From the NCBI GenBank assembly GCA_039794005.1, contig JBAMMA010000001.1, forward strand, positions 94,057 to 158,056: a stretch of 64,000 bases of DNA. The letters run 5' to 3'. The translations under genes and the position numbers were made by a program. Under the pieces are notes generated by a model that worked only from the letters and a program-made list of their open reading frames with translations, did no database searches and was not told where the DNA came from. Shown in pieces: positions 9,180-40,439 of this stretch (within the stretch, counting starts at the first letter, position 1; each line of letters starts with the position of its first letter). The DNA is from Thermoplasmata archaeon (lineage in GTDB: Archaea; Thermoplasmatota; Thermoplasmata; Thermoplasmatales; ARK-15).

Positions 9180-9180
9180 G

Positions 9181-10960: not shown

Positions 10961-10964
10961 TTTA

Positions 10965-11378
10965 TCATTTCCTAAGATTCTTTACTGTTTTCATAATTTC
11001 GAATTTAACATTCATTTCAGATAATTTTTCAGCAAAATTTTTCAATTCATTTTCATCATGGAAATGACACATAGCAAAATAGTCGTAAGGAAAATTAATG
11101 TTTTTTTCCCTCACATAAAGATGTGTTATTTTTGTTGATGAAATTATTTTATCTATTTTATTTTCATCCTCAAGTGCCATGGCTATAAGCGCACTCATAT
11201 TATATCCTAATTTTTCATAGTTCAATAATGCTCTAAATTTTATTATCTCTCCTTCATTTACTAATTTTTTAAGGATATCTATGAGTTCTTTTTTCTCAAT
11301 TCCCAAGGATTTTGCAAAATCCCCGTATGGATCATCTGATATGGGTATACCTTTCTTTAATTTTGATATATCAATCAT
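10965..11378 (-). CDS. ahbB: Siroheme decarboxylase beta subunit (AsnC/Lrp-like)
   Basis: GIPISDDPY, ITHLYVR, FPYDYFAMCH; position in cluster. Confidence 0.85.
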   Translation of the reverse strand: MIDISKLKKGIPISDDPYGDFAKSLGIEKKELIDILKKLVNEGEIIKFRALLNYEKLGYNMSALIAMALEDENKIDKIISSTKITHLYVREKNINFPYDYFAMCHFHDENELKNFAEKLSEMNVKFEIMKTVKNLRK

Positions 11379-11851
11379 AGTTGCACCTCAAATTCCGTGT
11401 TTAATTTTATTGCTCTTACTGTTTTGAAAATCAAATAGTTTTTTGAATTCAATTTTTCAGCAATTTCTTTCACCTGTTTTTCAATCTCTTCATAATTTTT
11501 TGCCATAACTGTAAACCAAACATTATAATAATGTTCCCTTAAATAGTTATGAGATACATTTTCATATGAATTTATTAGATTAGCCGCATTTTCTATTTTT
11601 TCTTTTTCTACATTCATTGCCACTAAAGCCCTTTCATATCTATCATAATTTTTTAATGGAATTTTTGGTATAATTTTTTTAATGTATCCATTTTTATAAA
11701 GATTTATTATTTTTTCTTTTACAGTCTCTTCCTCTAAACCAAGTGCATTTGCGATTATTTTATAAGGTCTTTCATCAATTGGAAATTCTTCTTGGATTAA
11801 TTTTAAAATTTTTACATCGATATCATCAATATTATCTTTTAAAATGGACAT
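11375..11851 (-). CDS. ahbA: Siroheme decarboxylase alpha subunit (AsnC/Lrp-like)
   Basis: QEEFPIDERPY, VSHNYLREHYYNVWFT; ATG at 11851 follows GGAGG RBS. Confidence 0.9.
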   Translation of the reverse strand: MSILKDNIDDIDVKILKLIQEEFPIDERPYKIIANALGLEEETVKEKIINLYKNGYIKKIIPKIPLKNYDRYERALVAMNVEKEKIENAANLINSYENVSHNYLREHYYNVWFTVMAKNYEEIEKQVKEIAEKLNSKNYLIFKTVRAIKLNTEFEVQL

Positions 11852-12912
11852 GCGGGATCCTCCTGGAGGTAATCTCCATATACAGCATAAGCTCTTGCCC
11901 TCGAACCACCACAAATATCCCTAAATTCACATCTTCCACACTTTCCTTTTAACATATTGGGATTCTTAAGATCATTGAATATTTTAGAATTTTTGTAAAC
12001 ATTTTTTATGTTATCTTTTCTTACATTTCCCGCTATGATGGGCAAAAAACCGGTAGGCTGAATTTCACCTACGTGAGAAATGAAGATTGTACCTCTTCCA
12101 TCGGTAACACCCATGTTATTAACATCCTTTGTAATGGGTAATGGCTTCTTTATCATATCTATACCAGAATGTTTTATTAGATATTCAAAAAGGTTTCCCT
12201 TATCTAATGGACCAGATATCTTTATTCTATTATAAAAAGGAGCCTCTGTAACTTTAATCCTGAAATCCGTTGAGGTTTGAACATAATAAAGCCATGACAT
12301 TACTTGCATTATTTCATCAGAATTTAATGTTAATTCAGAAGTTGCCCTTCCAGTGGGGACTATAAAAAATAGGTCCCAGGATTTGACATTAAGATTTTTT
12401 ACAAGTTTAAAAATTTCGGGCAAATCATAAATATTATGTTTTCCAACGGTGGTATTTACCTGCAAATTTACCTTTCCATCAAGATATTCTAATATTTCCA
12501 TAGACTTCTTGAAAGTACCATCAACATTTCTAAATGTGTCGTGAATTTCGGCATTACTTCCATCTATACTTATTGCCACATTCTTAACTTTTTCTGATAT
12601 TCTATCCAACTTTTCTTTTGTTGCAAGCACTGTACCGCTAAACGAAATGGATATGTTAAATTTGTATTTATTGAAGATATCAAGGATATCAAATATATCT
12701 TCCCTCATCAATGGATCCCCACCGGTAATTATTAACATAGGCTTAGGATTGTTGAATTCATTAAGATCCATTGCCAATTTTTCAATTTCATCTAGATTTA
12801 ATTCCAGTGGATTCCTTTTTTTCTGAGCATTAGCTCTGCAATGCCTGCATGATAGCATGCAGGCCCTTGTTACCTCGTAAAATACTATTATTGGATTTTC
12901 TGCAAAGTTCAT
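11839..12912 (-). CDS. ahbD: Radical SAM/SPASM protein, probable heme synthase (AhbD-like, resembles TIGR04053 family)
   Basis: CMLSCRHC, TGGDPL, VPTGRA, KGKCGRCEFRDICGGSRARAY, EDPAC; ahb context. Confidence 0.75.
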   Translation of the reverse strand: MNFAENPIIVFYEVTRACMLSCRHCRANAQKKRNPLELNLDEIEKLAMDLNEFNNPKPMLIITGGDPLMREDIFDILDIFNKYKFNISISFSGTVLATKEKLDRISEKVKNVAISIDGSNAEIHDTFRNVDGTFKKSMEILEYLDGKVNLQVNTTVGKHNIYDLPEIFKLVKNLNVKSWDLFFIVPTGRATSELTLNSDEIMQVMSWLYYVQTSTDFRIKVTEAPFYNRIKISGPLDKGNLFEYLIKHSGIDMIKKPLPITKDVNNMGVTDGRGTIFISHVGEIQPTGFLPIIAGNVRKDNIKNVYKNSKIFNDLKNPNMLKGKCGRCEFRDICGGSRARAYAVYGDYLQEDPACPF

Positions 12913-14102
12913 TTAAAATCCTCCGGAATTTCAGTTTTTATTTCTTCTTCAGTTAGGTAACAATCAGGATCTTCAGACCATAAATTTCCATTGTATTTAA
13001 GTGCTCTTACCCTGAATCCTCCGCAGATGTCTTTGAAATTGCATCTTCCACATTTTCCCGTTAGTAATTCCATTTTTCTATGTCTTAAATCGTATATTAT
13101 TCCAGTTTCATTTCTCCATATTTCAGAAAACTTTTTCTCTTTTACATTACCTTGTGAATAATCCCACCAAAATTGATTTGGGTGTACATTTCCCCATGGA
13201 TCGATATTTCCGGCCTTTATCCCGGAATTATCACCTCCCCTCCTTTTAAGAAGTTTATATACCTCTTTTGCTCTAGGATCGTTTTCTTTTAACAATTTCA
13301 GGAAGAGATAAATACCATCTACTGGATTATCTACAGTTAAAATCTCCATTTCTATTTTATTATCATGTATTTCATATGTTTTTTCTATCAGAAAATCTAT
13401 TATTTTCCTTCTTTCTTCATTGTTTATATCTTGATTTATTGATCCCCTTCCAGAAGGTACTAAATGATAAACGCAAAATCTATCTATGTTTAATTCCTTA
13501 GAAAGCTCAAATACTTTGCTCAAATCATCTTTATTATATTTTGTAATCGTAAATCTAATTCCATTCATCATTCCTGCATTTTTAACATATTTTAAACCGG
13601 ATAAAGCTTTTTCAAATGCACCATTTACACCTCTAAAATAATCATTTTTCTTTCCATATCCATCAAGGCTAATTCCAACATATTTTACACCTGCTTCCGA
13701 TAATTTAAAGGCAACAGATTCATTTATCGTTGTTCCATTGGATGAAAGGGTAACTCTAATTCCTTTTTCATTCATGTAGGAAGAGATTGTGTAAATGTCA
13801 GGATGGAGCGTAGGTTCTCCACCCGAAAGAATTACAACCGGCAATTTCATTTCTGCGAGATCATCTGTTATTTCAATAATCTTATCGGTTGATAGTTCAT
13901 TTGGTGTTTTTATTTCCGTGGCATTGGCATAACAATGAACGCATTTTAAATTACATTGTAGTGTAAGGTTCCAAAAAAGAACCGCAAGATCTATTTTTGT
14001 ATATCTTAAAAGTTCAGGATTTGTTTCATATTTAAATCTATTTTCATCAACAGCTTTACTTACTGTTCCAGATTTGAACAATAATTGATTAAATGCAATC
14101 AT
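12909..14102 (-). CDS. ahbC: Radical SAM Fe-coproporphyrin III synthase (NirJ1-like)
   Basis: WNLT..CNLKCVHC, GIRFT, YHLVPSGRG, LTVDN, VHPNQFW, CGRC..ICGGFRVRA, DPDCYL. Confidence 0.88.
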   Translation of the reverse strand: MIAFNQLLFKSGTVSKAVDENRFKYETNPELLRYTKIDLAVLFWNLTLQCNLKCVHCYANATEIKTPNELSTDKIIEITDDLAEMKLPVVILSGGEPTLHPDIYTISSYMNEKGIRVTLSSNGTTINESVAFKLSEAGVKYVGISLDGYGKKNDYFRGVNGAFEKALSGLKYVKNAGMMNGIRFTITKYNKDDLSKVFELSKELNIDRFCVYHLVPSGRGSINQDINNEERRKIIDFLIEKTYEIHDNKIEMEILTVDNPVDGIYLFLKLLKENDPRAKEVYKLLKRRGGDNSGIKAGNIDPWGNVHPNQFWWDYSQGNVKEKKFSEIWRNETGIIYDLRHRKMELLTGKCGRCNFKDICGGFRVRALKYNGNLWSEDPDCYLTEEEIKTEIPEDFK

Positions 14103-14211
14103 AACAAATACTTGTTATTATTAGAGGTATTTTAAATTTAGTAATAAAATTTTATTAATTATAATTAAAAAGATGAAAAAATAAATATGTTTGAAATTTA
14201 TAAATTTCATA
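14103..14211. promoter_or_regulatory. Divergent ahbC/hemL promoter region with several palindromes
   Basis: Perfect palindromes TAATAAAATTTTATTA (14142-14157), TTAATTATAATTAA (14155-14168), TGAAATTTATAAATTTCA (14192-14209). Confidence 0.5.
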
Positions 14212-15459
14212 ATGAAATCTGAAAAATTTTTTGAAGAAGCGAAAAAAATCTTTCCAGGTGGTGTAAATTCACCTGTAAGGTATTATGATCCATACCCAAT
14301 TTTTATAAAAAGTGGCAAAGGATCAAAAATATACGATGTCGATAATAGGGAATATGTCGATTTCTGTTTAGCCTACGGGCCACTGATTCTTGGCCATTTA
14401 AATGATCAGGTGAAAAAAGCCGTTCAGAGGAAAATGGAAAATGGATGGTTATTTGGAGCGCCAACTGAGGAGGAAATTTTACTTGGAAAATTAATCAATG
14501 AAGCTGTTCCCTATATAGAAATGATGAGATTTGTAAATTCTGGTACTGAAGGAACTATGCACACTATCAGGTTAGTCAGGGCATTTACTAATAAAAAAAG
14601 GATAGTAAAAATTATCGGGGGATATCACGGAGCTCACGATTCTGTATTAGTTTCACCAGGAAGTGGCGCTATTGGAAAACCTTCATCGGCAGGAATTCCA
14701 GAAGAAGTTACATCAAACACTTTTGTTGTTGAATATAATGATATTGAAACACTTGAGAATATATTTAGGAATTATAAAAATGAGATTGCTGGATTGATAA
14801 TCGAACCCGTGTTAGGAAATGCAGGTGTGATTTTACCCGATAAAGAATACTTAAAAAATGTACGTGAAATTACTTCTGAAAATGATGCCCTGTTAATATT
14901 TGACGAGGTTATCACAGGATTTAGGTTTCACTATGGAACAGCAGGTCAATATTTTTCTGTAATACCAGATCTTACTATCTTGGGGAAAATCGTTGGTGGT
15001 GGATTTCCTCTTGCTATATTCGGAGGCAGAAAAGACATCATGGAAAAAATTTCGCCTCAAGGAAACGTATATCAGGCAGGTACATTTTCAGGAAATCCCA
15101 TTTCTGTAACTGCAGGAATAACTACATTAAAAATATTGAAAAATAAGGATTATCATGAACTGGAGAATAAGGTTAAAATCATTGAGAAATTTGTAAACGA
15201 TTTGAAGGAAGACAAAGGGAGGGAAATACAGTTTAATTCTATGGTTAGCATGTTTCAGATATTTTTTAATAAAAATCCAGTAAAAAGATATTCGGATGCA
15301 ATTAATTCAGATTCCGTTAAATATAAAGAATTTTTTAATAAAATGTTAAAAAATGGTTTTTATTTACCTCCAAGTCAGTTTGAATCTCTATTTTTAAGTT
15401 TTGCACATACCAAAAAAGAAATATATAATTTTGGAAAGATAATCTATGATGAATTATAA
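14212..15459 (+). CDS. hemL: Glutamate-1-semialdehyde 2,1-aminomutase
   Basis: PGGVNSPVR, NSGTEGTM, YHGAHD, FDEVITGFR, LGKIVGGG, GTFSGNP; ATG at 14212 preferred over upstream TTG. Confidence 0.97.
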   Translation: MKSEKFFEEAKKIFPGGVNSPVRYYDPYPIFIKSGKGSKIYDVDNREYVDFCLAYGPLILGHLNDQVKKAVQRKMENGWLFGAPTEEEILLGKLINEAVPYIEMMRFVNSGTEGTMHTIRLVRAFTNKKRIVKIIGGYHGAHDSVLVSPGSGAIGKPSSAGIPEEVTSNTFVVEYNDIETLENIFRNYKNEIAGLIIEPVLGNAGVILPDKEYLKNVREITSENDALLIFDEVITGFRFHYGTAGQYFSVIPDLTILGKIVGGGFPLAIFGGRKDIMEKISPQGNVYQAGTFSGNPISVTAGITTLKILKNKDYHELENKVKIIEKFVNDLKEDKGREIQFNSMVSMFQIFFNKNPVKRYSDAINSDSVKYKEFFNKMLKNGFYLPPSQFESLFLSFAHTKKEIYNFGKIIYDEL

Positions 15460-16309
15460 GATAAGGATTGGAACACGTGGAAGCAATCTAGCACTAATTC
15501 AGGCATTAGAAGTTTCTGAAATGTTAAAGAATATAGGATTTGATACTGAGATAATAAAGATCAAGACAGAAGGGGATATAGATCAAAGGCCCCTTTACAT
15601 GACAAGAGAGTTTGGAATTTTTACAAAAAAGATTAATGAAGAACTTTTGAATGAAAATATTGACATTGCTGTTCACAGCATGAAGGACTTACCTGTAAAA
15701 ATTGAAGAAGGATTGAAAATTGTTTCAGTTCTAAAGAGAGAACGTTACGAAGATTTTTTCTTATCGAATAAAAACATTTTTGAAATTGAAGAGGGGAAAA
15801 AGATTGGAACTTCAAGCCTAAGAAGGAAATCATTCTTGAAAATAATCAGACCCGATATAGAGATTGTTGATGTAAGAGGAAATATTGATACAAGGATAAA
15901 AAAATATGAAAATAAAGAGGTAGATGGTTTAATTCTTGCATATGCAGGAATTAAAAGGCTTAATCTTAACCCCATAGGTCATATATTAGACCCGGATTTA
16001 TTTGTACCTCAGGCAAATCAAGGTATAATTGCCATACTTTCAAGAAACGATTTTCATTTGAATGAAAAGATATCTTTAATCAATCATAAAGAAACATTTT
16101 TAATTGGTATGGTTGAAAAAGAATTTTTAAGAGAGTTAGATGCAGGTTGTCATTCCCCGGTAGGTGTTCTTGCGAGGTTAATTGATGGTAAAATTTTAAT
16201 TCATGTAGCATACATAGATGATAAGAGATATGATTACTGGTCTAAATTTGAAATCAAATATCTTGATGAAGAGTTGAAAAGATTTCGAAGGTGGTATGAT
16301 GCCAGGTAA
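15446..16309 (+). CDS. hemC: Hydroxymethylbilane synthase (porphobilinogen deaminase)
   Basis: GTRGSNLAL, VHSMKD, GTSSLRR, RGNIDTRI, AGCHSPVG. Confidence 0.96.
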   Translation: MMNYKIRIGTRGSNLALIQALEVSEMLKNIGFDTEIIKIKTEGDIDQRPLYMTREFGIFTKKINEELLNENIDIAVHSMKDLPVKIEEGLKIVSVLKRERYEDFFLSNKNIFEIEEGKKIGTSSLRRKSFLKIIRPDIEIVDVRGNIDTRIKKYENKEVDGLILAYAGIKRLNLNPIGHILDPDLFVPQANQGIIAILSRNDFHLNEKISLINHKETFLIGMVEKEFLRELDAGCHSPVGVLARLIDGKILIHVAYIDDKRYDYWSKFEIKYLDEELKRFRRWYDAR

Positions 16310-17018
16310 GGTATATTTAATAGGTGCAGGTCCAGGAGATCCCGATCTTTTGACATTGAAAGCCTATAAAATAATAAAGAGGAGTGATGTTGTTCTATAT
16401 GACCGTCTTATAAATAAATCGATATTAAAAAAAATTCCCAGGGGGATAAAAAAAATATTAGTTGGCAAAAGTCCCGGTGATGATCCAGATGTTTTACAGA
16501 ATAAAATTAACGAATTGATTGAAAAATATTACAATGAAGGTAAAATAGTTGTAAGATTAAAATCTGGAGATCCATTTTTATTTGGGAGGGGTGGTGAAGA
16601 ACTAGAATTCATGAAACAAAGGAAAATTGATTTTGAAGTTATACCAGGTATAACCTCTGCAATAGGAGTTCCAACATATATAAAACTTCCTTTGACTCAT
16701 AGAAATTATTCTTCTTCTGTGATGATTATTTCAGGACATCTCAAAAGAAACAAAGCTATAAACTGGGAAATAGTTTCAAGATTTGATGGAACTATTGTTA
16801 TTTTAATGGGAATAAGCAATATGCAAGAAATAATGAATAATTTGATCGTTTATGGTAAAGATGAAAATACGCCTGTTTGTGTAATTCAATATGGAACAAC
16901 AAAAAAACAAAAGATTGTTAAGGGTAATTTAACAAATATTGTTGAAATCGCGAAAAAAAACAGAATAAAGGCGCCTGGAATTATTGTTATTGGTAAGGTG
17001 GTTGATTTGCTTGATTAG
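16296..17018 (+). CDS. cobA: Uroporphyrinogen-III C-methyltransferase (SUMT)
   Basis: GAGPGDPDLLT, RLKSGDPFLFGRGGEE, PGITSA, PLTHR. Confidence 0.96.
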   Translation: MMPGKVYLIGAGPGDPDLLTLKAYKIIKRSDVVLYDRLINKSILKKIPRGIKKILVGKSPGDDPDVLQNKINELIEKYYNEGKIVVRLKSGDPFLFGRGGEELEFMKQRKIDFEVIPGITSAIGVPTYIKLPLTHRNYSSSVMIISGHLKRNKAINWEIVSRFDGTIVILMGISNMQEIMNNLIVYGKDENTPVCVIQYGTTKKQKIVKGNLTNIVEIAKKNRIKAPGIIVIGKVVDLLD

Positions 17019-17733
17019 AATAATTACATTTAGGCCAGAGGAAAAATTTGAGAATATTAATATTGAAGATGTTGAAATTACCAATATTTCAATTACAAAG
17101 ATTGTAAAATTAAAATTTGATTTAAATTCAATAATAAATAAAAATTTTGATTACATTATTTTTACAAGTACTCTTGGTGCAAAATTTTTCATGGAAGAAA
17201 TTAAAAAACATAACCATGAAGAAATTCTAAAAAATAAAAATATCATAGCGATAGGTAAAAAGACCGCTGAATATTTAAACAATGACGTTATTATTCCAGA
17301 AAATCAATCATCAAAAGGTATTATTAAATTAATTGAGAAAAATTCTGAAATTTTATTGATAAGGAGTAAAAATGGAAATCCTTATTTAGTAAAAAGGTTG
17401 CGGGAAATTGGTAATTTACAGATTATAAATGCTTACAAAAGTGTTATTATCAATGATAAAGATTATAAATATATATACACAAAGATGAAAAATAATTATT
17501 TTAATGCAGTTATATTTACATCCTCTTTTATTTTTAGGTCATACTTAAAAGTTTTCTCCAGATATGGTAATCCTCTAGAAATCCTACCACCTTTGATAAT
17601 AGCAATAGGTGAGAGGACAGCCAATACCATTAAAAGGTTTGGGATTAAACCAATAATTATGGAAGAACCAGACATGAAATTAAGTGTGATAAAAGTAATC
17701 CAATATTACAAATCAGATACTTTATTTTATTAG
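17011..17733 (+). CDS. hemD: Uroporphyrinogen-III synthase
   Basis: TFRP, IFTS, AIGKKTA, AYK, FTSS, AIGERTA; TTG at 17011 after GGTGG RBS. Confidence 0.85.
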   Translation: MIRIITFRPEEKFENINIEDVEITNISITKIVKLKFDLNSIINKNFDYIIFTSTLGAKFFMEEIKKHNHEEILKNKNIIAIGKKTAEYLNNDVIIPENQSSKGIIKLIEKNSEILLIRSKNGNPYLVKRLREIGNLQIINAYKSVIINDKDYKYIYTKMKNNYFNAVIFTSSFIFRSYLKVFSRYGNPLEILPPLIIAIGERTANTIKRFGIKPIIMEEPDMKLSVIKVIQYYKSDTLFY

Positions 17734-18912: not shown

Positions 18913-20403
18913 ATGAGATTAATACCTGAAGAAATTGATAAATTTTTAAACTCTGAACATGGTGTATCATTGTTGATTAAAGGGTCCCCAGGTAGCGGGA
19001 AAACAACATTTTCACTACAAATTTTAGATAGAATGAAAAGCTATAAAAATGCAATATATGTATCCACTAGAATAGGAGATATAAGTTTATATAACCAATT
19101 TCCATGGTTAAAAGATGTAGAAAAAAACATTAAATTGATCATATTTTCAAAAACATTTGTTGAAAAAATTAATAAAAATGTTCAGGAAAATGAAATTAAG
19201 TACATTGCCAAAGAGATGCTAACTGAAATGAGGAATAATGAAAAGCATGTATCCAGATTTATGTATAACAGATTATTCAAGGACAACTTTATTCCGGAAA
19301 TAGAAAGAATTTATGATGAAGTAGAATCTAATTTACCCAAACAATCCATCATTGTAATAGATTCCATAGAGGGTATTACAATACCAAATGGAATAGATAC
19401 AGGTAATTTCATGTACATGATTCAAAAAGATATTATTGAAAGTGCAGGTTCTACTGTAATATTTGTATCAGAAAAAAATAGTATAGAACCAGAAGATTAT
19501 ATTGCTGATGGTGTAATTTACATGGATTATGAATATTTTGAAAATTATGATAATATGTTAAGATATATAAATATAAAAAAATTGAGAGGATATAAAATAA
19601 AAGAAAATCGATATATTTTTACTCTTGAAAATGGTAAAGTTGGAATATTCAATTATCCAGAATTGAGAAAATCTAAATCTGGAAAGTTTAATGCTATAAA
19701 AAATGGTGTAAAATATAGCACTGGAATAAAAGATTTGGATAATTTACTTAATGGAGGAATTAAACCAGGTAATATATTAACCATGAATGTTTCCAATAAT
19801 ACGACATTTTCAAATTTTTGGCTAATCAATAAACCTTTACTATTAAACGCATTATATAACAATTTTTGTATTGTTTTTCTTGCTGTTTCATCAAATACAT
19901 TTTCCAATCCAATTGAAAGCTTTTGTCAGGATGTAGGTTATGATATTTGTGATTCTAAAGTGAGATTTGTTAATTATTTCCCATACTCATATCTAAAAAA
20001 GGGGTTAATAGAAGATATTTTAGTGGACAGGGATTCAATAGCACTGAATGACTTTAAGGTCTTAAGTGAAATAAATAAGATTTCTGAAAATAAATATCCA
20101 ATATTGTTTTATTTAGATTATCCATCTCTTGAAAACATAAAAGGGTATATGGATGCCAAAAAGGAATTAAATTATATAATAAATTACATAAGAGGGAATA
20201 ATAAACATATAGGTGTAATATATAAGAATGAAAATGTAGATGTTGAAAATGAGATTAAATCTTTATCCAACTATTACATTAACATAGTAACTATAAAAGG
20301 CAATACATTCATATATGGAGTCAAACCGGAATTTCACTTGCATGGAGTTATGCCAGATGAAAATCTGGGAGAGCCCAATGTTAAATTAATACAAGTATTG
20401 TGA
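18913..20403 (+). CDS. GvpD/KaiC-like RecA-superfamily ATPase with active N-terminal and degenerate C-terminal domain
   Basis: Walker A GSPGSGKT, YVSTR, Walker B IVIDS, ADGVI, KLRG; second repeat YSTGIKDLDNLLNGG lacks Walker A. Confidence 0.85.
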   Translation: MRLIPEEIDKFLNSEHGVSLLIKGSPGSGKTTFSLQILDRMKSYKNAIYVSTRIGDISLYNQFPWLKDVEKNIKLIIFSKTFVEKINKNVQENEIKYIAKEMLTEMRNNEKHVSRFMYNRLFKDNFIPEIERIYDEVESNLPKQSIIVIDSIEGITIPNGIDTGNFMYMIQKDIIESAGSTVIFVSEKNSIEPEDYIADGVIYMDYEYFENYDNMLRYINIKKLRGYKIKENRYIFTLENGKVGIFNYPELRKSKSGKFNAIKNGVKYSTGIKDLDNLLNGGIKPGNILTMNVSNNTTFSNFWLINKPLLLNALYNNFCIVFLAVSSNTFSNPIESFCQDVGYDICDSKVRFVNYFPYSYLKKGLIEDILVDRDSIALNDFKVLSEINKISENKYPILFYLDYPSLENIKGYMDAKKELNYIINYIRGNNKHIGVIYKNENVDVENEIKSLSNYYINIVTIKGNTFIYGVKPEFHLHGVMPDENLGEPNVKLIQVL

Positions 20404-26764: not shown

Positions 26765-27760
26765 TTATTCAAATATTATTTCTTTTATTTCCAAAATTCT
26801 ATCAGGTTTGTAATAAGGATCCTTAACTATTCTCTGTGGCTTTTTATCAAATATCAATATTTTGTTTGGCTTTCCAGTAAATTTTTGCATTGTTAATGTG
26901 GAATATTCAATGACTTTCTCCTCATCGATAGAAAAGTAAAGCCAAGCTAACCTCATTTCCATCCTTATTGATGGTACTGTTATCATAGCATTATCTGTGC
27001 CTATTCCAATTTTTAATTTATCATTTTTGAATTTTTCAACATCAAATTTATGCTTGAAAAACAAGGTGGAACTTGGACAAATAATAACTGGAATATCATT
27101 TTCAATTATCTTTTCAAAATCTTCATGATCTCCATAGTACATATGAATAATAAAATCTGGCTTCAATTTCAAAACATCATCGATATTTTCCCTGAAACCT
27201 TCACTAACGTGCATTGAAAATAATTTATTATTTTTTTTTGCGTATTTTGATACCTTCTCCAAAAATTCAAATGGATAATCATTGATTCCGCTCATTCCAA
27301 TACCAGAACTTTTTTTTATAATTTCTTCCAACTCATTTTCATTATATTCTGAACTGGCGGGCCTGGACAATATAAATGGACGAACATTCCCAAAATCGAT
27401 GTTTTCCAATAATTTAATTCCTTCAATACCAGATTCTCTAAAATCAAAGAATGCACCTACATTTTCATTTTCCATTATTTTTATTGAATATTTTATCCCT
27501 TCCCGAATTACATTTTTATTTGTAGAACTCAACATTTTGGATTTGAAGCCACCGGGTCCTACAAGATTTTTCACATCCAATCTAGGTACTTTATCAATAA
27601 ATCCATCACCTAAATGTGTGTGGGAATTAACAAAATTTGATGTAATTGTAATTTCTGGTTCGACATCTTTCTCTCTTATATAAATGGTTCCATTCTCATA
27701 TTTTAATCTACCAATAACTCCCCTTTCATAAACGGATATAAAGGCATTATCAAATATCAT
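26765..27760 (-). CDS. Amidohydrolase-superfamily metalloenzyme
   Basis: NSHTHLGD, DFRE, HVSE, IIHM, CPSS, GTDN. Confidence 0.85.
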   Translation of the reverse strand: MIFDNAFISVYERGVIGRLKYENGTIYIREKDVEPEITITSNFVNSHTHLGDGFIDKVPRLDVKNLVGPGGFKSKMLSSTNKNVIREGIKYSIKIMENENVGAFFDFRESGIEGIKLLENIDFGNVRPFILSRPASSEYNENELEEIIKKSSGIGMSGINDYPFEFLEKVSKYAKKNNKLFSMHVSEGFRENIDDVLKLKPDFIIHMYYGDHEDFEKIIENDIPVIICPSSTLFFKHKFDVEKFKNDKLKIGIGTDNAMITVPSIRMEMRLAWLYFSIDEEKVIEYSTLTMQKFTGKPNKILIFDKKPQRIVKDPYYKPDRILEIKEIIFE

Positions 27761-28503
27761 TTTTTACCTCTCTGGACCAATTCGAATCCATATTCTGTTA
27801 TTTTAAACGTTTTAACTTCAGGGTTAAATGTTGTACCTCTCATTTTTAATATCTGCAAAGTTCTTTCATCCATGTTTCTTTTAATTGTCCTTTTCAGTAA
27901 TATTATACCTCCAGCTAAAATAAACTCTGGCTTAACATTTTCCAAATTTCCCTCATCTGTGAAAATTGCAGTAACACCTTTCTCAACAAAAAATCTTATG
28001 AATTTTGCCATTACAGGATTTCTTGTTTCTGGATCTGCTCCAAATCTTTTTAATGTTGTAAATGAATCCATCACTACTCTGTTAAAATTTCTTTCTTTAA
28101 ATTCCAATTCCAATTTTAACTGAAGACTTTCAAATGTCAGTTCACCCTTTTCCATTTTTCTATTTACATTTGAAAGATCTCTAATTTCCCCTTTTGCTGT
28201 CATGTCTCTGACGCCTGCTCCAGTTGTATAAAGAGAAGGAGATGGTACAGCATCCATAACGTTCAATGATAGAAAATTCCATCCGAAAGATTCCGTTATA
28301 GGATTCAATATATCGTAGGGTGGTCGGTCTGTGGAAATGTATAAGCATCTTTCCCCCAACCTTAAACCTTCATATAAAAATTTCAGCGCAAACAATGTTT
28401 TTCCAGTACCGGAATCCCCCATTATAAAATAAACTTTATTTTCAGGTAATCCCCCATTTACCATTTCATCAAACCAATCGATTCCAACTTTTACCCTCGG
28501 CAT
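27757..28503 (-). CDS. KaiC/RAD55-like single-domain ATPase
   Basis: GIDWFDEMVNGGLP, GDSGTGKT, VVMDS, ILKMRG. Confidence 0.88.
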   Translation of the reverse strand: MPRVKVGIDWFDEMVNGGLPENKVYFIMGDSGTGKTLFALKFLYEGLRLGERCLYISTDRPPYDILNPITESFGWNFLSLNVMDAVPSPSLYTTGAGVRDMTAKGEIRDLSNVNRKMEKGELTFESLQLKLELEFKERNFNRVVMDSFTTLKRFGADPETRNPVMAKFIRFFVEKGVTAIFTDEGNLENVKPEFILAGGIILLKRTIKRNMDERTLQILKMRGTTFNPEVKTFKITEYGFELVQRGKK

Positions 28504-28508
28504 TTAGA

Positions 28509-29237
28509 TCACTCCACTGCAAAACCATTATTTTTCAACACAAGTGATATATTTGTTTTCTTTAAAATATATGATGATTTTACAATTTCTAGTGTATAAT
28601 CATTTTCATCTTTATCTAACCTTAAAACACTATCCATCATTCTCATGATAGTGTTTAAATCATCAAAATCCTCAGCAATAAAGAGAACTGTTGAATTTTC
28701 AATATATCTAAAGAAATCAACAAATGCCAGCGCAGCCTCTTCAGGATCTACGCCTGTAGTATAAAATAGCTTTAAGGATGTTAGAGAATCTATGACAACT
28801 CTGGTAAACTTATTCTTTTCCATTATGTTTTTAATAGTAGACCTGAGATTGAATATATCGATTTCCCTTCCAGTTCCCTTCATCTTTACATCTCTCATCC
28901 TAATGACGTCCGTTACCTGTGTAACTTCCCTGTACGGGGCAATCTCTTTTTTCTTGGACGAAGGAACAGCATCAATTACATTTATTATATCTAAATTCCA
29001 CTGCATATTTTCAAAATCTTTCTTAACTTCGTATGCGGATTCATCCAATGAAACGTATAATACTTCTTCACCTTTTAAAGCCCCATCTATGAGGAATTGT
29101 AATCCAATTATTGTTTTCCCAGATCCGGGTTTTCCATACAGTATGTTTAATGAATTATCCCTTAATCCCGGATAATAGTTTTCAAGATTTAAAATTCCTA
29201 GGGAAACTGGCATTATTGTTTTTATCATAATCATCAT
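28509..29237 (-). CDS. KaiC/RAD55-like single-domain ATPase
   Basis: GKPGSGKT, QFLIDG, YVSLDE, VVIDSLT; start ambiguous among several Met codons. Confidence 0.85.
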   Translation of the reverse strand: MMIMIKTIMPVSLGILNLENYYPGLRDNSLNILYGKPGSGKTIIGLQFLIDGALKGEEVLYVSLDESAYEVKKDFENMQWNLDIINVIDAVPSSKKKEIAPYREVTQVTDVIRMRDVKMKGTGREIDIFNLRSTIKNIMEKNKFTRVVIDSLTSLKLFYTTGVDPEEAALAFVDFFRYIENSTVLFIAEDFDDLNTIMRMMDSVLRLDKDENDYTLEIVKSSYILKKTNISLVLKNNGFAVE

Positions 29238-29355: not shown

Positions 29356-29688
29356 ATGACATCTTTAGAAGTTTTGAAGGAAATAGTGAATAAACTTAAT
29401 AATAACCCAAATGCAAAGGAAGAAGTGAAGGGAACAAAGGATATTTTTCAGTTCAAGACAGAAAATCAGAATTATTACCTACAATTTAAAGAAGATGGAA
29501 GTGCCGAAGTATATGAGGGTATACATCCATCACCATCTGTAACGTTGACAGCCAAAGATTCAGATTTCACAGACATAATGACCGGAAAACTGGATGGTGT
29601 TAGAGCATTTTTCACTGGGAAATTGAAAATTTCAGGAAACGCGATGCTTGCAAATAAATTGGTAAATTTGATGAAAAAGCTGAAGTGA
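29356..29688 (+). CDS. SCP2 sterol/lipid-binding domain protein
   Basis: PSVTLT..DFTDIMTGKLDGVRAFFTGKLKISGN. Confidence 0.9.
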   Translation: MTSLEVLKEIVNKLNNNPNAKEEVKGTKDIFQFKTENQNYYLQFKEDGSAEVYEGIHPSPSVTLTAKDSDFTDIMTGKLDGVRAFFTGKLKISGNAMLANKLVNLMKKLK

Positions 29689-29694
29689 TCATAG

Positions 29695-31695
29695 ATGGAA
29701 ATCAAGAATATCGCCGTTATAGGATCTGGGGAGATGGGGCACGGTATAGCTGAGGTTTTTGCAATAAAAGGATATTCAGTCAACTTAGAGGATATTTCTG
29801 AGGAAATTCTAAAGAAAGCAAAGGATCAAATATTCGAAAGCCTAAAAAAGCTGGAAGAAAAGGGAAAACTAGGAAAGGAAAAGGCCGAGGATGTTTTGTC
29901 CAGAATAAATTTTACAACGAATTTCCAGGATGCTGTAAAGGATGCAGATTTGGTAATAGAGGCCGTACCTGAAAAGGAAGATTTAAAGAAAAAAATCTTT
30001 GCCGATTTAGAAAAATATACCAGAAATGACGCTATTTTAACAAGCAACACATCTAATATTAGAATAACGGATATTGCAAAAGATCTAAAATATAAAGATA
30101 GAGTTGCAGGTCTACATTTTTTCAATCCACCGGTAATGATGAAATTGGTGGAGGTAATTAAAGGAGAAGAAACATCTGAAAATACAATTAATACTTTAAT
30201 GGATATTGTAAAGAAAATAGATAAAACACCAGTAAGAGTAAATAAAGATTCACCGGGATTTATAGTTAATAGAATCAATGCTCCTGACATGTTATTTTTC
30301 TGCCTTTTAATTGAAAATAATGTTGCAACACCGGAAGAAATAGATGCATTTGCTAAAATGCAAGGATTACCAATGGGACCTTATGAATTAATAGATTATG
30401 TTGGAATAGATGTTGTATACCATTCAATGGAATATTATGCAAGAACATTGAATCCAGATTATGCAAAATGCAATGTCTATAAAGATCTTTATTCGAAGGG
30501 ATATCTGGGAAAGAAGACTGGAAGAGGATTTTATGATTGGTCACAGGGAAGGCCAAAGATCGATACAAATAAAGCCACGGACAAAGTGAGCTTATTAGAT
30601 TTATTTGCAATAGAAATTAATGAAGCTGTTAAGTTAATTGAAGAGGATGTTGCGAATCCAGAAGATATTGAAACGGCTGTAAAATTGGGTTTGAACAGGC
30701 CTTTTGGTCCAATTTCAGTTGCAAAAAGTTTAACAAATGCTGAAGTAAAAGAAAAGCTTGAAGAGTTGGCTAATAGGTTTAAAAATTCCGTTTTTGAACC
30801 AGCAGAAACAATAAAGCAGGGAAAGATGAGGGATGCCATAGACGGTTTATTAAAAAAGGAAAAGAAAAAGGAAACAACGGGTATTTCAATAGCTCAGGTA
30901 AAAGAGGAAACTAAATCCAAACAGGAGTATTCCACCATCATATTAGAAAAATACCCATTTAAAGTGGCAAAAATAATTTTAAACAGACCTAAGAATAACA
31001 CAATTACAGGGGAGCTTCTAGATGAATTAGAAAATGCAATAAGATCATTATGGAATGATCCTGAGGTAAATGTAATAGTTATTGCCGGTTCAGGTGAGAG
31101 GTTTTCTGCAGGTGCAGAGTTGTCCCAGTATTTCCCAAGCAGTTTTTCATTTTTGGAGTTTTCGAGGAAAGGAGAAAGGGTTTTCAGGCTCTTATCAGAA
31201 ATACCAAAAATAACCATCGCATCCATAAAAGGCGTTGCTTTGGGTGGTGGATTTGAACTCGCAATATCATGCGATCTAAGGGTAAGTAGTCCAGATGCAC
31301 AGCTTGGATTTCCAGAAGTTACCTTGGGTTTGATTCCAGCATGGGGAGGAAGCAACAGACTGGCAAAATTGATAGGGATTTCTAGAGCGATGGATTTAAT
31401 AATCACAGGTAGAAGGATTAATGGAAAAGATGCATATGAATGGGGGATCGTTAACAGACTTTCTGACAATCCGGATGAGGAATCGATGAATCTAGCAAAA
31501 TCAATAGCTGAAAATTCTGCACCAATTTCAGCTGCTTTGGCTAAAAGAATAATAAATAAAGGAACTGAAATTCCAATGGATGTAGGCCTTGAAATGGAAT
31601 CAATTGCAGCGGGTCTCGTATTTTCCACTGAAGATTTGAAGGAAGGTATATCATCATTTTTGCAGAAAAAGAAACCCGAATACAAGGGTAGGTGA
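29695..31695 (+). CDS. 3-hydroxyacyl-CoA dehydrogenase / enoyl-CoA hydratase fusion
   Basis: GSGEMGHGIA, EAVPE, SNTS, HFFNP, PMGP; C-terminal crotonase FSAGAE, GGGFELA, PEVTLG. Confidence 0.93.
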   Translation: MEIKNIAVIGSGEMGHGIAEVFAIKGYSVNLEDISEEILKKAKDQIFESLKKLEEKGKLGKEKAEDVLSRINFTTNFQDAVKDADLVIEAVPEKEDLKKKIFADLEKYTRNDAILTSNTSNIRITDIAKDLKYKDRVAGLHFFNPPVMMKLVEVIKGEETSENTINTLMDIVKKIDKTPVRVNKDSPGFIVNRINAPDMLFFCLLIENNVATPEEIDAFAKMQGLPMGPYELIDYVGIDVVYHSMEYYARTLNPDYAKCNVYKDLYSKGYLGKKTGRGFYDWSQGRPKIDTNKATDKVSLLDLFAIEINEAVKLIEEDVANPEDIETAVKLGLNRPFGPISVAKSLTNAEVKEKLEELANRFKNSVFEPAETIKQGKMRDAIDGLLKKEKKKETTGISIAQVKEETKSKQEYSTIILEKYPFKVAKIILNRPKNNTITGELLDELENAIRSLWNDPEVNVIVIAGSGERFSAGAELSQYFPSSFSFLEFSRKGERVFRLLSEIPKITIASIKGVALGGGFELAISCDLRVSSPDAQLGFPEVTLGLIPAWGGSNRLAKLIGISRAMDLIITGRRINGKDAYEWGIVNRLSDNPDEESMNLAKSIAENSAPISAALAKRIINKGTEIPMDVGLEMESIAAGLVFSTEDLKEGISSFLQKKKPEYKGR

Positions 31696-31699
31696 AACC

Positions 31700-32884
31700 A
31701 TGCGCGATGTATATATAGTAGACTTTTTAAGATCAGCATTCTCAAGATCCAGGCCAAACGAACCATCAAGGGATGTTTTCAATTCCATAAGAATGGATGA
31801 AGTCGTCGCAATGCTATTAAAGGAAATGATAAAAAGAAATAATATAGATCCTCTCAGGATTGGTGATGTAATAACGGGATGTGCACTACAGGCTGACGAA
31901 AATTGGCTTTATGGTGGAAGACATCCTATATTTTTGGCAAATCTTCCAGTGGAAGTACCTGCGATGGCAGTAGATAGGGCATGTTCATCATCAATGGTAA
32001 CTGCAGCAATCGGTTCATGGGAAATAATGACTGGTAATTCAGATATTGTATTTGCCGGTGGAATGGAGCATATGACACACGTTCCATTGAATAATAATCC
32101 GCATGTAGCACCTAATTATAAGTTGTTGGTGAGACCAGAATACATGAAATATAAGATGAACATAGGATATAGTATGGGTTTAACAGCGGAGGAACTAGCA
32201 AAGGTATCGGGAATAACGAAGGATGAAATGGATGAATTTTCATACAGAAGTCATATTCTAGCATCCAAAGCTTTACAGGATGGATACTTTAAAGGGGAGA
32301 TATTGCCCATAAAGGTTGAATATAATGGACAGATGATAACTGTTGATAAAGATCAGAGCATAAGACCTGATACCACATTGGAGCAGATAAAAAATCTCCC
32401 ACCAGCGTTTAAACCTGACGGTGTTATAACGGCAGGAAACTCATCACCATTGAATGCCGGTGCATCAATGTTAATGTTAATGGATGAAAAAACCATGGAT
32501 GAATATTCGCTTAAACCATTGGCAAGGATAGTTAGCTTTGGATGGGCAGGTGTTCATCCAGCAATAATGGGAGAGGGACCAGTTCCCGCAAGTAAAAAAG
32601 CATTGGAGAGGGCCAAATTAAAGGTAGAAGATATCGATTATTGGGAAATAAATGAGGCTTTTGCAGTAGTTCCATTGAATGCGATTAAAAAATTAAACAT
32701 CGATATAAATAGGGTAAATATACATGGAGGAGGAATATCAATAGGCCATCCATTGGGGGCATCTGGAGCCAGGATAATAGGAACATTGTCTAGGATATTA
32801 AAGGAGAATAATGGCCATTATGGGGTTGCAACGTTATGTGTGGGTGGTGGCCAAGGATATGCCACCGTCATTGAAAGGGTGTGA
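31700..32884 (+). CDS. Acetyl-CoA C-acyltransferase (thiolase)
   Basis: RACSSS, TAGNSS, EINEAF, GHPLGASG, LCVGGGQG. Confidence 0.95.
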   Translation: MRDVYIVDFLRSAFSRSRPNEPSRDVFNSIRMDEVVAMLLKEMIKRNNIDPLRIGDVITGCALQADENWLYGGRHPIFLANLPVEVPAMAVDRACSSSMVTAAIGSWEIMTGNSDIVFAGGMEHMTHVPLNNNPHVAPNYKLLVRPEYMKYKMNIGYSMGLTAEELAKVSGITKDEMDEFSYRSHILASKALQDGYFKGEILPIKVEYNGQMITVDKDQSIRPDTTLEQIKNLPPAFKPDGVITAGNSSPLNAGASMLMLMDEKTMDEYSLKPLARIVSFGWAGVHPAIMGEGPVPASKKALERAKLKVEDIDYWEINEAFAVVPLNAIKKLNIDINRVNIHGGGISIGHPLGASGARIIGTLSRILKENNGHYGVATLCVGGGQGYATVIERV

Positions 32885-32889
32885 TATAT

Positions 32890-34005
32890 ATGGATTTTGA
32901 TTTACCGCCAGAAATATTGGAAAAAAAGAAAAAAGTGAGGGAATTTGCCTTGAAAAATTTTGATATGGAAAAGGCAAAATATTACGATCTAAATGAAAAG
33001 TTCCCATTTGAAATTAGAAAAAAGGCACTTGAAGAAGGTATAATTGAATATGACCCATGGGCACTTTTAGTTACTATAGAAGAACTATTTAGGGTAGATC
33101 CAGGAATGGGTTTTTCAGTATTTTCACCATTTTTTGGAAATGAGAACATAATGTTATTAGGAACAGATTATCAAAAGAAGAAATATCTTGAGCCAGTACT
33201 GAGGGGAGAAAAGATAATGGGATTTGCTGTAACCGAGCCTGTAGCCGGAAGCGATGTGGCAGGAATTCAGAGCAGAATAGAAAAAAAGGACGGCAAATGG
33301 ATACTTAATGGGAATAAAATGTTTATAACAAATGGTTCCATTGCTGATTTCCTTGTTGTTCTGGCAAGGAATGGCCCACCCCCTTCACAGGAAAAAAGGC
33401 ATCATAACATGACATTTTCAATAGTTGAAATGAACTGGAAAGGTGTATCAAGAAATAAATTGACAGGTAAAATGGGTATGAGGGCATCAGATACGGCAGA
33501 AATAATATTCGAAAATGTAGAAGTACCTGAAGAGAATATTTTAGGCGAAGTAGGAAAAGGATTTTACATAGCCATGCAATTCTTTAACATATCGAGAATT
33601 TATGTTGCAGCAATGGCATTGGGTATTGCTCAAGGTGCTCTTGACAGATTATTGAATAGAGCGTACAATGATAAAGAATTTTCATCAAACGAGCATGTAC
33701 AATTTACAATTGCAGAAGTTGCAACAAGAATAGAAGCTGCAAGGCTATTAACTTATAAAGCTGCAACATATCTGTTCCAAATGAATCCGGATCCAGTTCT
33801 CACAAGTATGGCTAAATATTACGCAGCTGAGACTGGGACATATGCAACAGAGAGGGCATTATCATTATTAGGACTTGACGGTGCATTGACTGAGCTAGAA
33901 AGAATTTTTAGAGATGCAAAAATAAATGAAATTTGGGAAGGGTCGAGTGAAATTGAAGAACTAACAATATACAGAATGTTAATGAAAAAGTATGGAGGAA
34001 TATAA
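32890..34005 (+). CDS. Acyl-CoA dehydrogenase, catalytic-type subunit
   Basis: AVTEPVAGSD, NGNKMFITNG, KMGMRAS, RDAKINEIWEGSSEI. Confidence 0.92.
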   Translation: MDFDLPPEILEKKKKVREFALKNFDMEKAKYYDLNEKFPFEIRKKALEEGIIEYDPWALLVTIEELFRVDPGMGFSVFSPFFGNENIMLLGTDYQKKKYLEPVLRGEKIMGFAVTEPVAGSDVAGIQSRIEKKDGKWILNGNKMFITNGSIADFLVVLARNGPPPSQEKRHHNMTFSIVEMNWKGVSRNKLTGKMGMRASDTAEIIFENVEVPEENILGEVGKGFYIAMQFFNISRIYVAAMALGIAQGALDRLLNRAYNDKEFSSNEHVQFTIAEVATRIEAARLLTYKAATYLFQMNPDPVLTSMAKYYAAETGTYATERALSLLGLDGALTELERIFRDAKINEIWEGSSEIEELTIYRMLMKKYGGI

Positions 34006-35031
34006 ATGATAGATGAAGAGCATGCTGTTTTAGAATCAATAATAAAGGAGTTTGCCACAAAGGAAATAGAACCGAAGGTTAAATCAATTGAAGTTAATGG
34101 TATTGATCAAGACATATTGCAAAAATTGGTTTCACAGGGATTTTTGGGTGCTCTGGCATCTGCAGAAAATGGAGGCGCTAACTTGGATGACCTGGGATAC
34201 GCGATTTTATTAAGGGAGCTTGCATCATCAAGTCCATCGATTTCATTTTTGGTATTTTTGGAAAATTCATTTGTTATAAAATCCTTGAATAATGATCCCT
34301 CCATTAAAGACATTTCAACTGGTAGTTACCTTGGAACCTTTGCGTTTGGAAATTTAATTGGTATGAAAGAATATGGAAAAATCTCTATCGATGAAGGAAT
34401 AAGTGGTTATCTCAGAGCAGTATTTATGCCAGAAGCGAAGATTTTACTTGTTGATAATGGAAAAGGAGAGATTATTAAAACTGAAAATTGTCATGAAATC
34501 ATTAAAAACGAAGACCAACTGGGCTTCAGGGGCATAAAATTTTCAACTGTTGAATTGAACTGTAAAAATTATATCAAAACAGGTGTAAAAACTTCAGATA
34601 TAATGAGAAATATACATTTGCCAATTGCAGCCATGGCAATTGGAATTGCGAAAGGATCAATTATGAAAGCCATAGATTATGCAGGTCAAAGGGAGGCATT
34701 TATGCACAAGTTAAAAGATTTTGAACCAATAGCATTCAATTTATCAAAAGCATACTCTGAACTTGAAATATTAAACAATTACCTAATTGAAGCAGCGACA
34801 AACAGGGATTATAAAAAAGACCTGATGATTAAAACCTTAGCTCTTGATTTTGCCAAGCGTGCATCAAAGCTGGCATTGCAAACACATGGTGGCTATGGTT
34901 ATCTCTTGGATTTTGGCATTGAAAAGTTTTACAGAGATTCAATGTTTTTGTCTATAGTTTTAGGAAATGAACTATTTGATCTAAAAGATTTATCAAAGGA
35001 AGTATTTGGAGGCGAATCTGGATTCATCTAA
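34006..35031 (+). CDS. Acyl-CoA dehydrogenase-like subunit, divergent and probably non-catalytic
   Basis: YAGQREAF, QTHGGYGY, EKFYRDS present; TEP..GSD and catalytic EG absent. Confidence 0.85.
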   Translation: MIDEEHAVLESIIKEFATKEIEPKVKSIEVNGIDQDILQKLVSQGFLGALASAENGGANLDDLGYAILLRELASSSPSISFLVFLENSFVIKSLNNDPSIKDISTGSYLGTFAFGNLIGMKEYGKISIDEGISGYLRAVFMPEAKILLVDNGKGEIIKTENCHEIIKNEDQLGFRGIKFSTVELNCKNYIKTGVKTSDIMRNIHLPIAAMAIGIAKGSIMKAIDYAGQREAFMHKLKDFEPIAFNLSKAYSELEILNNYLIEAATNRDYKKDLMIKTLALDFAKRASKLALQTHGGYGYLLDFGIEKFYRDSMFLSIVLGNELFDLKDLSKEVFGGESGFI

Positions 35032-35051
35032 ATCATTTTTTTTTATTTTAT
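35032..35051 (+). terminator. T-rich archaeal terminator after beta-oxidation operon
   Basis: TTTTTTTTTATTTTAT immediately after the stop codon. Confidence 0.5.
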
Positions 35052-40037: not shown

Positions 40038-40439
40038 TTATTCCTTAATGAACCATACTCCTCTTGCTACTGCGCATAATTTATTTTTTCCATCCTTTAT
40101 CTCAATATCACAAAAGGCCAAATTTTTACCTTTCCTTATTACTTTTGATTCTGCTGTTATAGGCCCATTCGCTATAGGTTCTATATAATCTATTTCTAAA
40201 TTGACAGTTACCTGATTTTTCCATTCCAGATAGCTCAATACTGAAGTCCCTCCAGCGGTATCGGCTAGAGTCGCAATCGCTCCTCCATTTGCTATATCGC
40301 CAAGTCTGGTAATCTCCTTTCTAAAAGGCATAGTTAATTTCGCATATCCGGGTGAAATATCCTCAACTTTGATCTGAACGTAATTTATGAATGGATCGCT
40401 CTCTATCATTTCCTTCAGAAATTTATATTCCTCGCGCAT
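40038..40439 (-). CDS. PaaI family hotdog thioesterase
   Basis: NGGAIATLADTAGG, QVTVNL..DY. Confidence 0.88.
   Translation of the reverse strand: MREEYKFLKEMIESDPFINYVQIKVEDISPGYAKLTMPFRKEITRLGDIANGGAIATLADTAGGTSVLSYLEWKNQVTVNLEIDYIEPIANGPITAESKVIRKGKNLAFCDIEIKDGKNKLCAVARGVWFIKE

Follow-up and report, generated by a model that had tools for sequence, protein, structure and literature searches.

In an ordinary acyl-CoA dehydrogenase (ACAD) dimer, each flavin adenine dinucleotide (FAD) lies between two subunits: one of them holds the isoalloxazine ring and supplies the catalytic Glu, while the Arg-x-x-Phe and Gln-x-x-Gly-Gly segments of its neighbour contact the ADP part of the cofactor, as seen in medium-chain acyl-CoA dehydrogenase (MCAD) structures. 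Heteromeric (α2β2) forms of these enzymes are known from bacterial steroid catabolism, namely ChsE4-ChsE5 (FadE26-FadE27), ChsE1-ChsE2 (FadE28-FadE29), IpdE1-IpdE2 and the Scd pairs of Proteobacteria. In the solved bacterial α2β2 ACADs, as one paper states, the α subunit provides the isoalloxazine pocket, the catalytic Glu and the substrate site, and the β subunit contacts the ADP-ribose of the FAD (PMC11153573). In this work, we analyzed a stretch of 64,000 nucleotides from an ARK-15 Thermoplasmata archaeon (assembly GCA_039794005.1, contig JBAMMA010000001.1, positions 94,057 to 158,056 of the forward strand; hereafter, the window), in which five closely spaced genes on the + strand (29356-35031) form a β-oxidation operon that ends with two adjacent ACAD genes. 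The first of them, ACAD1 (32890-34005, 371 residues from its ATG), would encode a catalytic α subunit and the second, ACAD2 (34006-35031, 341 residues), a non-catalytic β subunit. A previous sequence-only reading of the window had proposed that the two proteins form an obligate heteromer, and the results described below lead us to consider it probable that they are the α and β subunits of one heteromeric acyl-CoA dehydrogenase with a single FAD site per α-β pair.

We aligned both proteins, together with their families, to complete ACADs and scored the motifs with the residue numbering of the canonical ACAD P0311. ACAD1 retains T123, G128-S129-D130, the FITNG segment and E361-G362, whereas R266, F269, Q334 and G338 are absent from it. 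In its own numbering, the flavin-ring loop corresponds to T115-D122 (nucleotides 33232-33255) and the catalytic Glu to Glu350 (33937-33939), followed by G351. The place of Arg-x-x-Phe-Gly is occupied by a degenerate stretch (residues 253-267, 33646-33690, + strand) and that of Gln-x-x-Gly-Gly-x-Gly by S-L-L-G-L-D-G (residues 325-331, 33862-33882, + strand). When compared with the solved structure 5lnx, ACAD1 is shorter by 4 residues at the Phe-Gly-x-Pro-Ile site and by another 2 just after the Gly-Gly site. ACAD2, for its part, retains R266 (R229 in its own numbering), F269 (F232), Q334, H336 and G337-G338-Y-G340, contained in the segments Y225-F232 (34678-34701) and Q292-Y299 (34879-34902), whereas the G-S-D loop has been deleted from it and the position of the catalytic Glu is occupied by Leu319 (34960-34962). 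Pfam recognizes the three ACAD domains PF02771, PF02770 and PF00441 in ACAD1 and only the N- and C-terminal ones, PF02771 and PF00441, in ACAD2, whose middle domain goes unrecognized. The losses of ACAD1 and ACAD2 are exact complements, and neither protein possesses both FAD half-sites, as each subunit of a canonical homotetrameric ACAD does. The sequence-only reading had described this complementarity, and its eight quoted motif strings are all present in the translations of the two + strand open reading frames (ORFs); one detail had to be amended, since it had ACAD2 losing the catalytic Glu-Gly pair when only the Glu is gone and the next Gly is kept.

As a control we used 91 other ACAD ORFs found on 80 fetched loci. 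R266 and G128 were present in 91/91, E361 in 84/91, and position 338 was a Gly in 88 ORFs and an Ala in the other 3, while the deletion of the flavin loop was observed in none of the 91. As every control ORF keeps the Arg and none loses the loop, losses such as those of ACAD1 and ACAD2 are rare among ACADs and exceed what chance would produce.

Both families have conserved the complementary pattern. For ACAD1, the family set (n = 123) consisted of the best 120 database relatives (54-99% identical) plus the proteins of the window and of two related loci, L001 and L003; the ACAD2 family (n = 118) consisted of 117 database members, minus two shorter than 300 residues, plus the proteins of the same three loci. 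T123, G128, D130 and E361 are each found in 123/123 members of the ACAD1 family, and R266, Q334 and G338 in 0/123. Conversely, R266, F269, G337, G338 and G340 are each found in all 118 members of the ACAD2 family and Q334 in 109, whereas E361 is found in none and 116-118 of them show a gap at the G-S-D loop. In a tree of 77 rows (quick IQ-TREE search, SH-aLRT support only) each family forms one clade (support of 100 for both), so that these counts are counts of sequences, which reflect one ancestral change per family retained since then and not independent events. ACAD1 nests among complete ACADs in this tree. Since ACAD1 and ACAD2 share 24% identity over 185 residues and are not sisters, they do not constitute a recent tandem duplicate. 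Furthermore, the members of the ACAD1 family differ from each other in both the length and the sequence of the two degenerate segments, and the middle domain of ACAD2 is similarly variable, as would be expected of regions with no binding role left.

ACAD2 has an intact ORF of a length typical of its family, with 26 invariant columns over about 115 database sequences. A profile search returned 57 listed matches at or above 325 bits, after which the scores fall to 191 bits, and an exhaustive search retrieved about 46 representatives (50% clustering) with scores from 432 down to 231 bits. ACAD2 is hence a conserved, intact and sharply bounded family and not a decaying copy; the pseudogenization that the sequence-only reading had named as counter-evidence was not seen.

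The two genes are also linked in the related genomes. A genome scan with generic patterns kept 80 loci, only three of which belong to Thermoplasmatota (L001, L002 and L003). The order thiolase-ACAD1-ACAD2 recurs in the two full related loci (2/2, L001 and L003; 3/3 when the window is counted); L002 ends inside ACAD2 at a contig end, which removes its upstream side, and was left out of this count. In all three cases ACAD1 and ACAD2 are co-oriented, separated by 0 nt in the window and in L003 and by 2 nt in L001. In the window, the TAA of ACAD1 (34003-34005) directly abuts the ATG of ACAD2 (34006). The sequence-only reading had noted this abutment and had suggested the co-occurrence of the two genes as a check. 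In addition, nine ACAD2/ACAD1 pairs among the database proteins show indirect signs of co-location. The identities to the window copies in L001 and L003, respectively, are 66% and 59% for the thiolase, 54% and 49% for ACAD1 and 36% and 32% for ACAD2. ACAD2 is thus the fastest-evolving of the three, and these rates fit a catalytic subunit accompanied by a scaffold subunit.

The setting of the pair is that of ordinary β-oxidation. L003 contains, besides the trio, an acyl-CoA synthetase gene and a fused gene for 3-hydroxyacyl-CoA dehydrogenase and enoyl-CoA hydratase (HCDH/ECH), whose product is 47% identical to its homologue in the window. In L001, an electron transfer flavoprotein (ETF) gene and a CCG/4Fe-4S oxidoreductase gene are located just upstream of the trio and an acyl-CoA synthetase gene downstream. 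The upstream region of L001 (2-2623, - strand) comprises the ETF-domain gene and a gene whose 665-residue product is a membrane protein that bears CCG and 4Fe-4S dicluster domains, and it is plausible that the ETF and this iron-sulfur membrane protein constitute the electron outlet for the dehydrogenase. We also observed a third ACAD near the pair in L001 (8796-10058), of 420 residues, with complete FAD motifs and Thr at the usual position of the catalytic Glu; this protein may use a base located elsewhere, as some ACAD types do.

Structure prediction added a further line of evidence. The AlphaFold2 (AF2) model of ACAD2 (pLDDT 91.3) shows a complete three-domain ACAD fold in which the β domain is present (strands 110-195). 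It superposes on 2jif_A (human ACADSB) with a TMq of 0.86, and the nearest proteins by fold are ACADSB and butyryl-CoA dehydrogenases. Both proteins can be assigned to the ACAD superfamily, ACAD1 because of its three Pfam domains and ACAD2 because of its two Pfam domains and the full modelled fold. We folded the heterodimer from the ACAD1 and ACAD2 alignments with FAD co-modelled, in three runs and with three controls, and obtained ipSAE values of 0.91, 0.92 and 0.92 versus 0.72 for the best control, a margin of +0.20 that equals the bare threshold; of 157 solved complexes, 116 attain the ipSAE mark employed, as do 2 of 215 mismatched pairs. Agreement between the runs is 96% or higher for the contacts, with a pLDDT of at least 93 for the partner chain. 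In the model, the flavin loop of ACAD1 (118-122) contacts ACAD2 230-233, beside R229, and its catalytic loop (344-354) contacts ACAD2 291-300. The degenerate segments also participate in the modelled interface (267-270 and 328-335 of ACAD1; 115-123 and 316-323 of ACAD2). These are predicted contacts and the position of the FAD was not reported, but the modelled interface would correspond to the FAD-sharing interface of an ACAD dimer, one of its sites being live and the other dead. Besides, 9 of the 26 invariant residues of ACAD2 fall within its predicted interface of 44 residues (odds ratio 4.2, Fisher p 0.0026). With regard to the complex expected by the sequence-only reading, its contacts did appear at the FAD-sharing interface and its score exceeded that of the controls, although by no more than the threshold margin and for a complex that resembles others already solved.

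Since ACAD1 keeps only the residues for the isoalloxazine ring and catalysis and ACAD2 only those for the ADP part, an α-β pair would contain a single complete site for FAD binding and activity. According to the mechanism that we propose, ACAD1 would hold the isoalloxazine ring and the acyl-CoA, with Glu350 abstracting the proton, and ACAD2 would clamp the ADP part of the FAD of ACAD1 through R229, F232 and the segment Q292-Y299. The reciprocal site, made of both degenerate halves, would be dead and empty. The α-β heterodimer would probably be doubled to α2β2, as in other ACAD tetramers. From this we infer a stoichiometry of α2β2 with two FAD per tetramer and single subunits that are inactive on their own. 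As for the substrate, a straight-chain short or medium acyl-CoA would be expected.

Several observations weigh against this heteromer. First, the sets used to quantify conservation were picked by their similarity to the proteins of the window. Second, ACAD1-type proteins with the same losses, 55-62% identical to that of the window, carry the labels Nitrososphaeria, Conexivisphaerales, Sulfodiicoccus acidiphilus and Methanomassiliicoccales. The named ACAD2 matches among those listed, in turn, are all from Thermoplasmata except for one metagenome-assembled genome labelled Caldisphaera, and none comes from the non-Thermoplasmata groups that possess ACAD1; nor do the ACAD1-type proteins of these groups show such indirect signs of co-location with a listed ACAD2 match. 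α-type proteins may hence exist without a β subunit of this ACAD2 family. Third, the heterodimer control in which ACAD1 was replaced by an unrelated natural protein of 409 residues reached an ipSAE of 0.72 with 81 contacts with ACAD2. Either the fold of this protein resembles that of ACADs or the model is prone to docking ACAD2, and the result is weakened thereby. In addition, the heterodimer score may reflect likeness to solved ACAD dimers or to ChsE4-ChsE5 more than binding. Fourth, an archaeal ACAD, Saci_1123, which may or may not be of the ACAD1 type, was produced on its own, with 1 mM FAD added in the purification, and proved active, as described in a preprint (bioRxiv 10.1101/2024.07.05.601840). 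Finally, the case for a heteromer is, for the moment, a computational one, built on sequence comparisons and models.

With regard to the second of these points, the non-Thermoplasmata ACAD1-type proteins (P0087, P0102, P0105-P0107, P0112, P0125, P0154 and P0164) nest within the diversity of Thermoplasmata on the tree, which might be a trace of gene transfer. P0209 and P0216 were considered as partners of the non-Thermoplasmata ACAD1s P0102 and P0104 and rejected, as both are ordinary complete ACADs. Among the Atlas clusters, we found a look-alike cluster of 56 members that is devoid of the middle-domain signature and whose commonest phylum is Nitrososphaerota, as well as one Thermoplasmatota cluster and several bacterial ones; these clusters are to be taken as leads and not as alignments, the one of Nitrososphaerota being the only hint of a partner for the non-Thermoplasmata ACAD1-type proteins.

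Part of this evidence could be accommodated if ACAD1 were self-sufficient, either as a homotetramer that holds its FAD without contacts from a neighbour or as an enzyme that uses the flavin otherwise, ACAD2 being an accessory or regulatory paralogue dispensable for catalysis. The existence of ACAD1-type proteins in lineages where no ACAD2-family match was named speaks for this possibility. So do the strong conservation of ACAD1 and its proximity to ordinary active ACADs, and also the performance of Saci_1123 on its own once FAD was added, even if its motif type may be a different one. However, a self-sufficient ACAD1 would leave unexplained why ACAD2 preserves its trans-acting FAD residues in 118/118 members despite the deletion of its own flavin loop, why the adjacency of both genes is fixed in 3/3 loci and why the Arg missing from ACAD1 is kept in 91/91 ordinary ACADs. 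Moreover, the variable length and sequence of the degenerate segments of ACAD1 argue against a new FAD contact at these sites. We regard a self-sufficient ACAD1 as unlikely.

A different possibility is that the heteromer is real but specialized for a bulky or branched lipid, for example an isoprenoid-derived acyl-CoA, with the SCP2 protein acting as its carrier. The sequence-only reading had favored a bulky lipid in view of the SCP2 protein. In favor of this possibility, an SCP2-domain gene starts the operon of the window, and the known α2β2 ACADs act on steroid side chains (PMC6678751, PMC11153573). The proposal was, however, not supported. The flanks of L001, L002 and L003 showed no SCP2, so that the link between SCP2 and the ACAD pair is not conserved. 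Furthermore, the best solved and curated matches of ACAD1 are short- or medium-chain or butyryl-type enzymes, and the neighbors of the pair are ordinary β-oxidation genes, without steroid-type hydratase or aldolase genes among them. A specialization for bulky lipids appears improbable to us on these grounds. As for the idea that ACAD2 is a decaying duplicate without a function of its own, to which the loss of the catalytic Glu and of the flavin loop, a middle domain unseen by Pfam and a faster evolution than that of ACAD1 might point, it is already contradicted by the conservation of the family (intact ORF, typical length and invariant columns), by the confidently predicted full ACAD fold and by the conserved position of the gene, and we find it scarcely credible.

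A complementary distribution of FAD motifs was also observed in other proteins. The exhaustive search also returned P0318, a fused double ACAD of 749 residues, with a composition rich in Ala and Arg, whose N-terminal half keeps the flavin loop and the Glu and is devoid of F269 and G338, while its C-terminal half keeps the Arg, the Phe and the Gly-Gly and is devoid of the loop and the Glu. We considered it as a possible ACAD1-ACAD2 fusion, that is, a Rosetta-stone link, and discarded this possibility, since its halves pair with each other on the tree (support of 98) and lie away from both archaeal clades, which means that it arose separately. Two more fused double ACADs, P0322 and P0399, have a β-like half followed by an α-like half; the N-terminal half is without the catalytic Glu and the C-terminal half without the Gly-Gly segment, the complementary loss being only partial in these two cases. 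P0313 is a single β-like ACAD that groups with an ordinary ACAD. P0312, P0315, P0316 and P0374 appear by eye to be doubles with both halves complete. Judging from these sequences, the complementary decay of ACAD half-sites seems to recur.

It is tempting to speculate further that ACAD1 and ACAD2 represent an old archaeal two-subunit ACAD, independent of the bacterial steroid enzymes, that serves as a main β-oxidation dehydrogenase of Thermoplasmatota and possibly of other archaea with ACAD1-type genes, where the Nitrososphaerota β-like cluster might provide the second subunit. Together with P0318, P0322/P0399 and P0313, it would exemplify a recurrent drift of homomeric flavoenzymes that share their cofactor sites towards obligate heteromers in which one site is live and the other dead. 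This broader proposal has a reasonable chance of being right, but we lean slightly towards doubt.

The remaining genes of the operon, all on the + strand, precede the ACAD pair. The operon begins with the gene for the SCP2-domain protein (29356-29688, 110 residues; PF02036, E 2.2e-21), followed by the HCDH/ECH fusion, with the dehydrogenase at the N-terminus and the hydratase at the C-terminus (29695-31695, 666 residues; 3HCDH_N 1.1e-67, 3HCDH 6e-39, ECH_1 7.1e-50), and the thiolase (31700-32884, 394 residues; Thiolase_N 2.4e-59, Thiolase_C 2.2e-47). From 5' to 3', the five genes are separated by gaps of 6, 4, 5 and 0 nt. A GTG at 32881 could serve as an alternative start of ACAD1, the homologues of which start at the ATG. 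A Shine-Dalgarno-like GGAGG (33994-33998, + strand) lies within the end of ACAD1, 7 nt 5' of the ATG of ACAD2, and might indicate translational coupling of both genes. Directly 3' of the ACAD2 stop there is a T-rich tract (T9-A-T4; 35036-35049, + strand) that likely marks the end of the operon and could function as a terminator; the next + strand ORF begins at 35245. In the window there is no ETF gene and no ACAD other than ACAD1 and ACAD2.

The window carries split RNA polymerase A'/A'', the subunit B of this enzyme and a transketolase that is likewise split, as corresponds to an archaeal chromosome. Its G+C content is about 31%, and the close homologues of both ACAD1 and ACAD2 are labelled Thermoplasmata. 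Around the operon we noted a 4HBT-type thioesterase gene 5 kb to its 3' side (40038-40439, - strand; 133 residues), whose product is possibly an acyl-CoA thioesterase, and two adjacent genes of KaiC/RecA-like ATPases (27757-29237, - strand; about 245 residues each), divergent from the operon and named from the P-loops in their translations. Further upstream, a gene encoding a 496-residue protein (18913-20403, + strand) matches the KaiC and GvpD P-loop families. A tetrapyrrole cluster distributed on both strands (8202-17733) was recognized by Pfam, with ALAD, glutamyl-tRNA reductase, two radical-SAM genes, a class-III aminotransferase, porphobilinogen deaminase, a tetrapyrrole methylase and HemD; the location of two radical-SAM genes beside a methylase suggests that a siroheme-dependent (alternative) haem route may operate in this organism.

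The sequence-only reading knew of no characterized heteromeric ACAD from archaea. Our full-text literature searches likewise found no report of one, within a scope that left outside the primary papers on the α2β2 enzymes, which might mention archaeal homologues. The "heterotetramer" that appears in a preprint on archaeal β-oxidation is a thiolase/DUF35 complex and not an ACAD (bioRxiv 10.1101/2024.07.05.601840). If confirmed, the pair described here would constitute the first heteromeric ACAD from an archaeon, one found outside steroid catabolism. In that event, the α2β2 design would be a recurrent outcome of the sharing of FAD in ACAD dimers and not an adaptation to steroids. There are also practical consequences, as annotation pipelines and metabolic models score both genes as acyl-CoA dehydrogenases although no more than one of them could catalyze the reaction, and the expression of an ACAD1-type enzyme by itself may yield flavin-poor or inactive protein. 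Besides, the pair would offer a clean natural case for studying how the interdependence of paralogues evolves.

Regarding the known systems, the β-oxidation set of Sulfolobus acidocaldarius comprises the ACAD Saci_1123, the HCDH/ECH fusion Saci_1109 and the thiolase Saci_1114 (bioRxiv 10.1101/2024.07.05.601840). The fusion protein of the window has the same order of domains as Saci_1109, HCDH followed by ECH, whereas Saci_1123, which is possibly of another type than ACAD1, was produced and assayed by itself. The pimeloyl-CoA dehydrogenase PimC/PimD, with a large and a small subunit, is likewise a two-gene ACAD; however, ACAD1 reaches scores of only 76 for the NCBIfam model TIGR03204 (cut-off 623.85) and 50.5 for TIGR03203 (cut-off 652.7), and ACAD2 matches neither of them.

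In sequence as well as in fold, both subunits are most closely related to the homotetrameric short- and medium-chain ACADs, such as MmgC (5lnx), the Thermus thermophilus enzyme (1ws9), Bcd (4l1f/5ol2), SCAD and MCAD. The best 60 of the 85 matches of ACAD1 in the PDB are all ordinary ACADs or ACAD-like enzymes, with 5lnx on top (E 1.1e-60). In the case of ACAD2 (53 matches, E up to 0.001), ordinary ACADs were also on top (6fah_C, 4.4e-22), no ChsE/FadE chain was found and the sole chain of a steroid ACAD was 6wy8_A (4.8e-7). In a tblastn search of ACAD2 against plasmids, made for actinobacterial α/β pairs, the two regions that were opened contained nothing but single generic ACADs. ACAD1 shares with the homotetrameric enzymes the position of the catalytic Glu and the flavin-ring motifs; in contrast, each of their subunits contains both FAD half-sites, while in the pair of the window each subunit contains one.

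It is in this division that the pair resembles ChsE4-ChsE5, ChsE1-ChsE2 and IpdE1-IpdE2, which also consist of two ACAD-fold proteins encoded by adjacent genes, the division of the window pair being seen in its sequence and in the predicted interface. Unlike the steroid ACADs, however, ACAD1 and ACAD2 are archaeal and belong to a generic β-oxidation operon with no steroid-catabolic neighborhood. Altogether, the pair would work like ChsE4-ChsE5 without being their close kin, both subunits appearing nearer in sequence to the ordinary short-chain ACADs, and its origin is likely separate from that of the steroid enzymes. Whereas the mechanism is thus already known from bacteria, what is new here is the domain of life and the pathway in which it would operate, reached probably by an independent origin.

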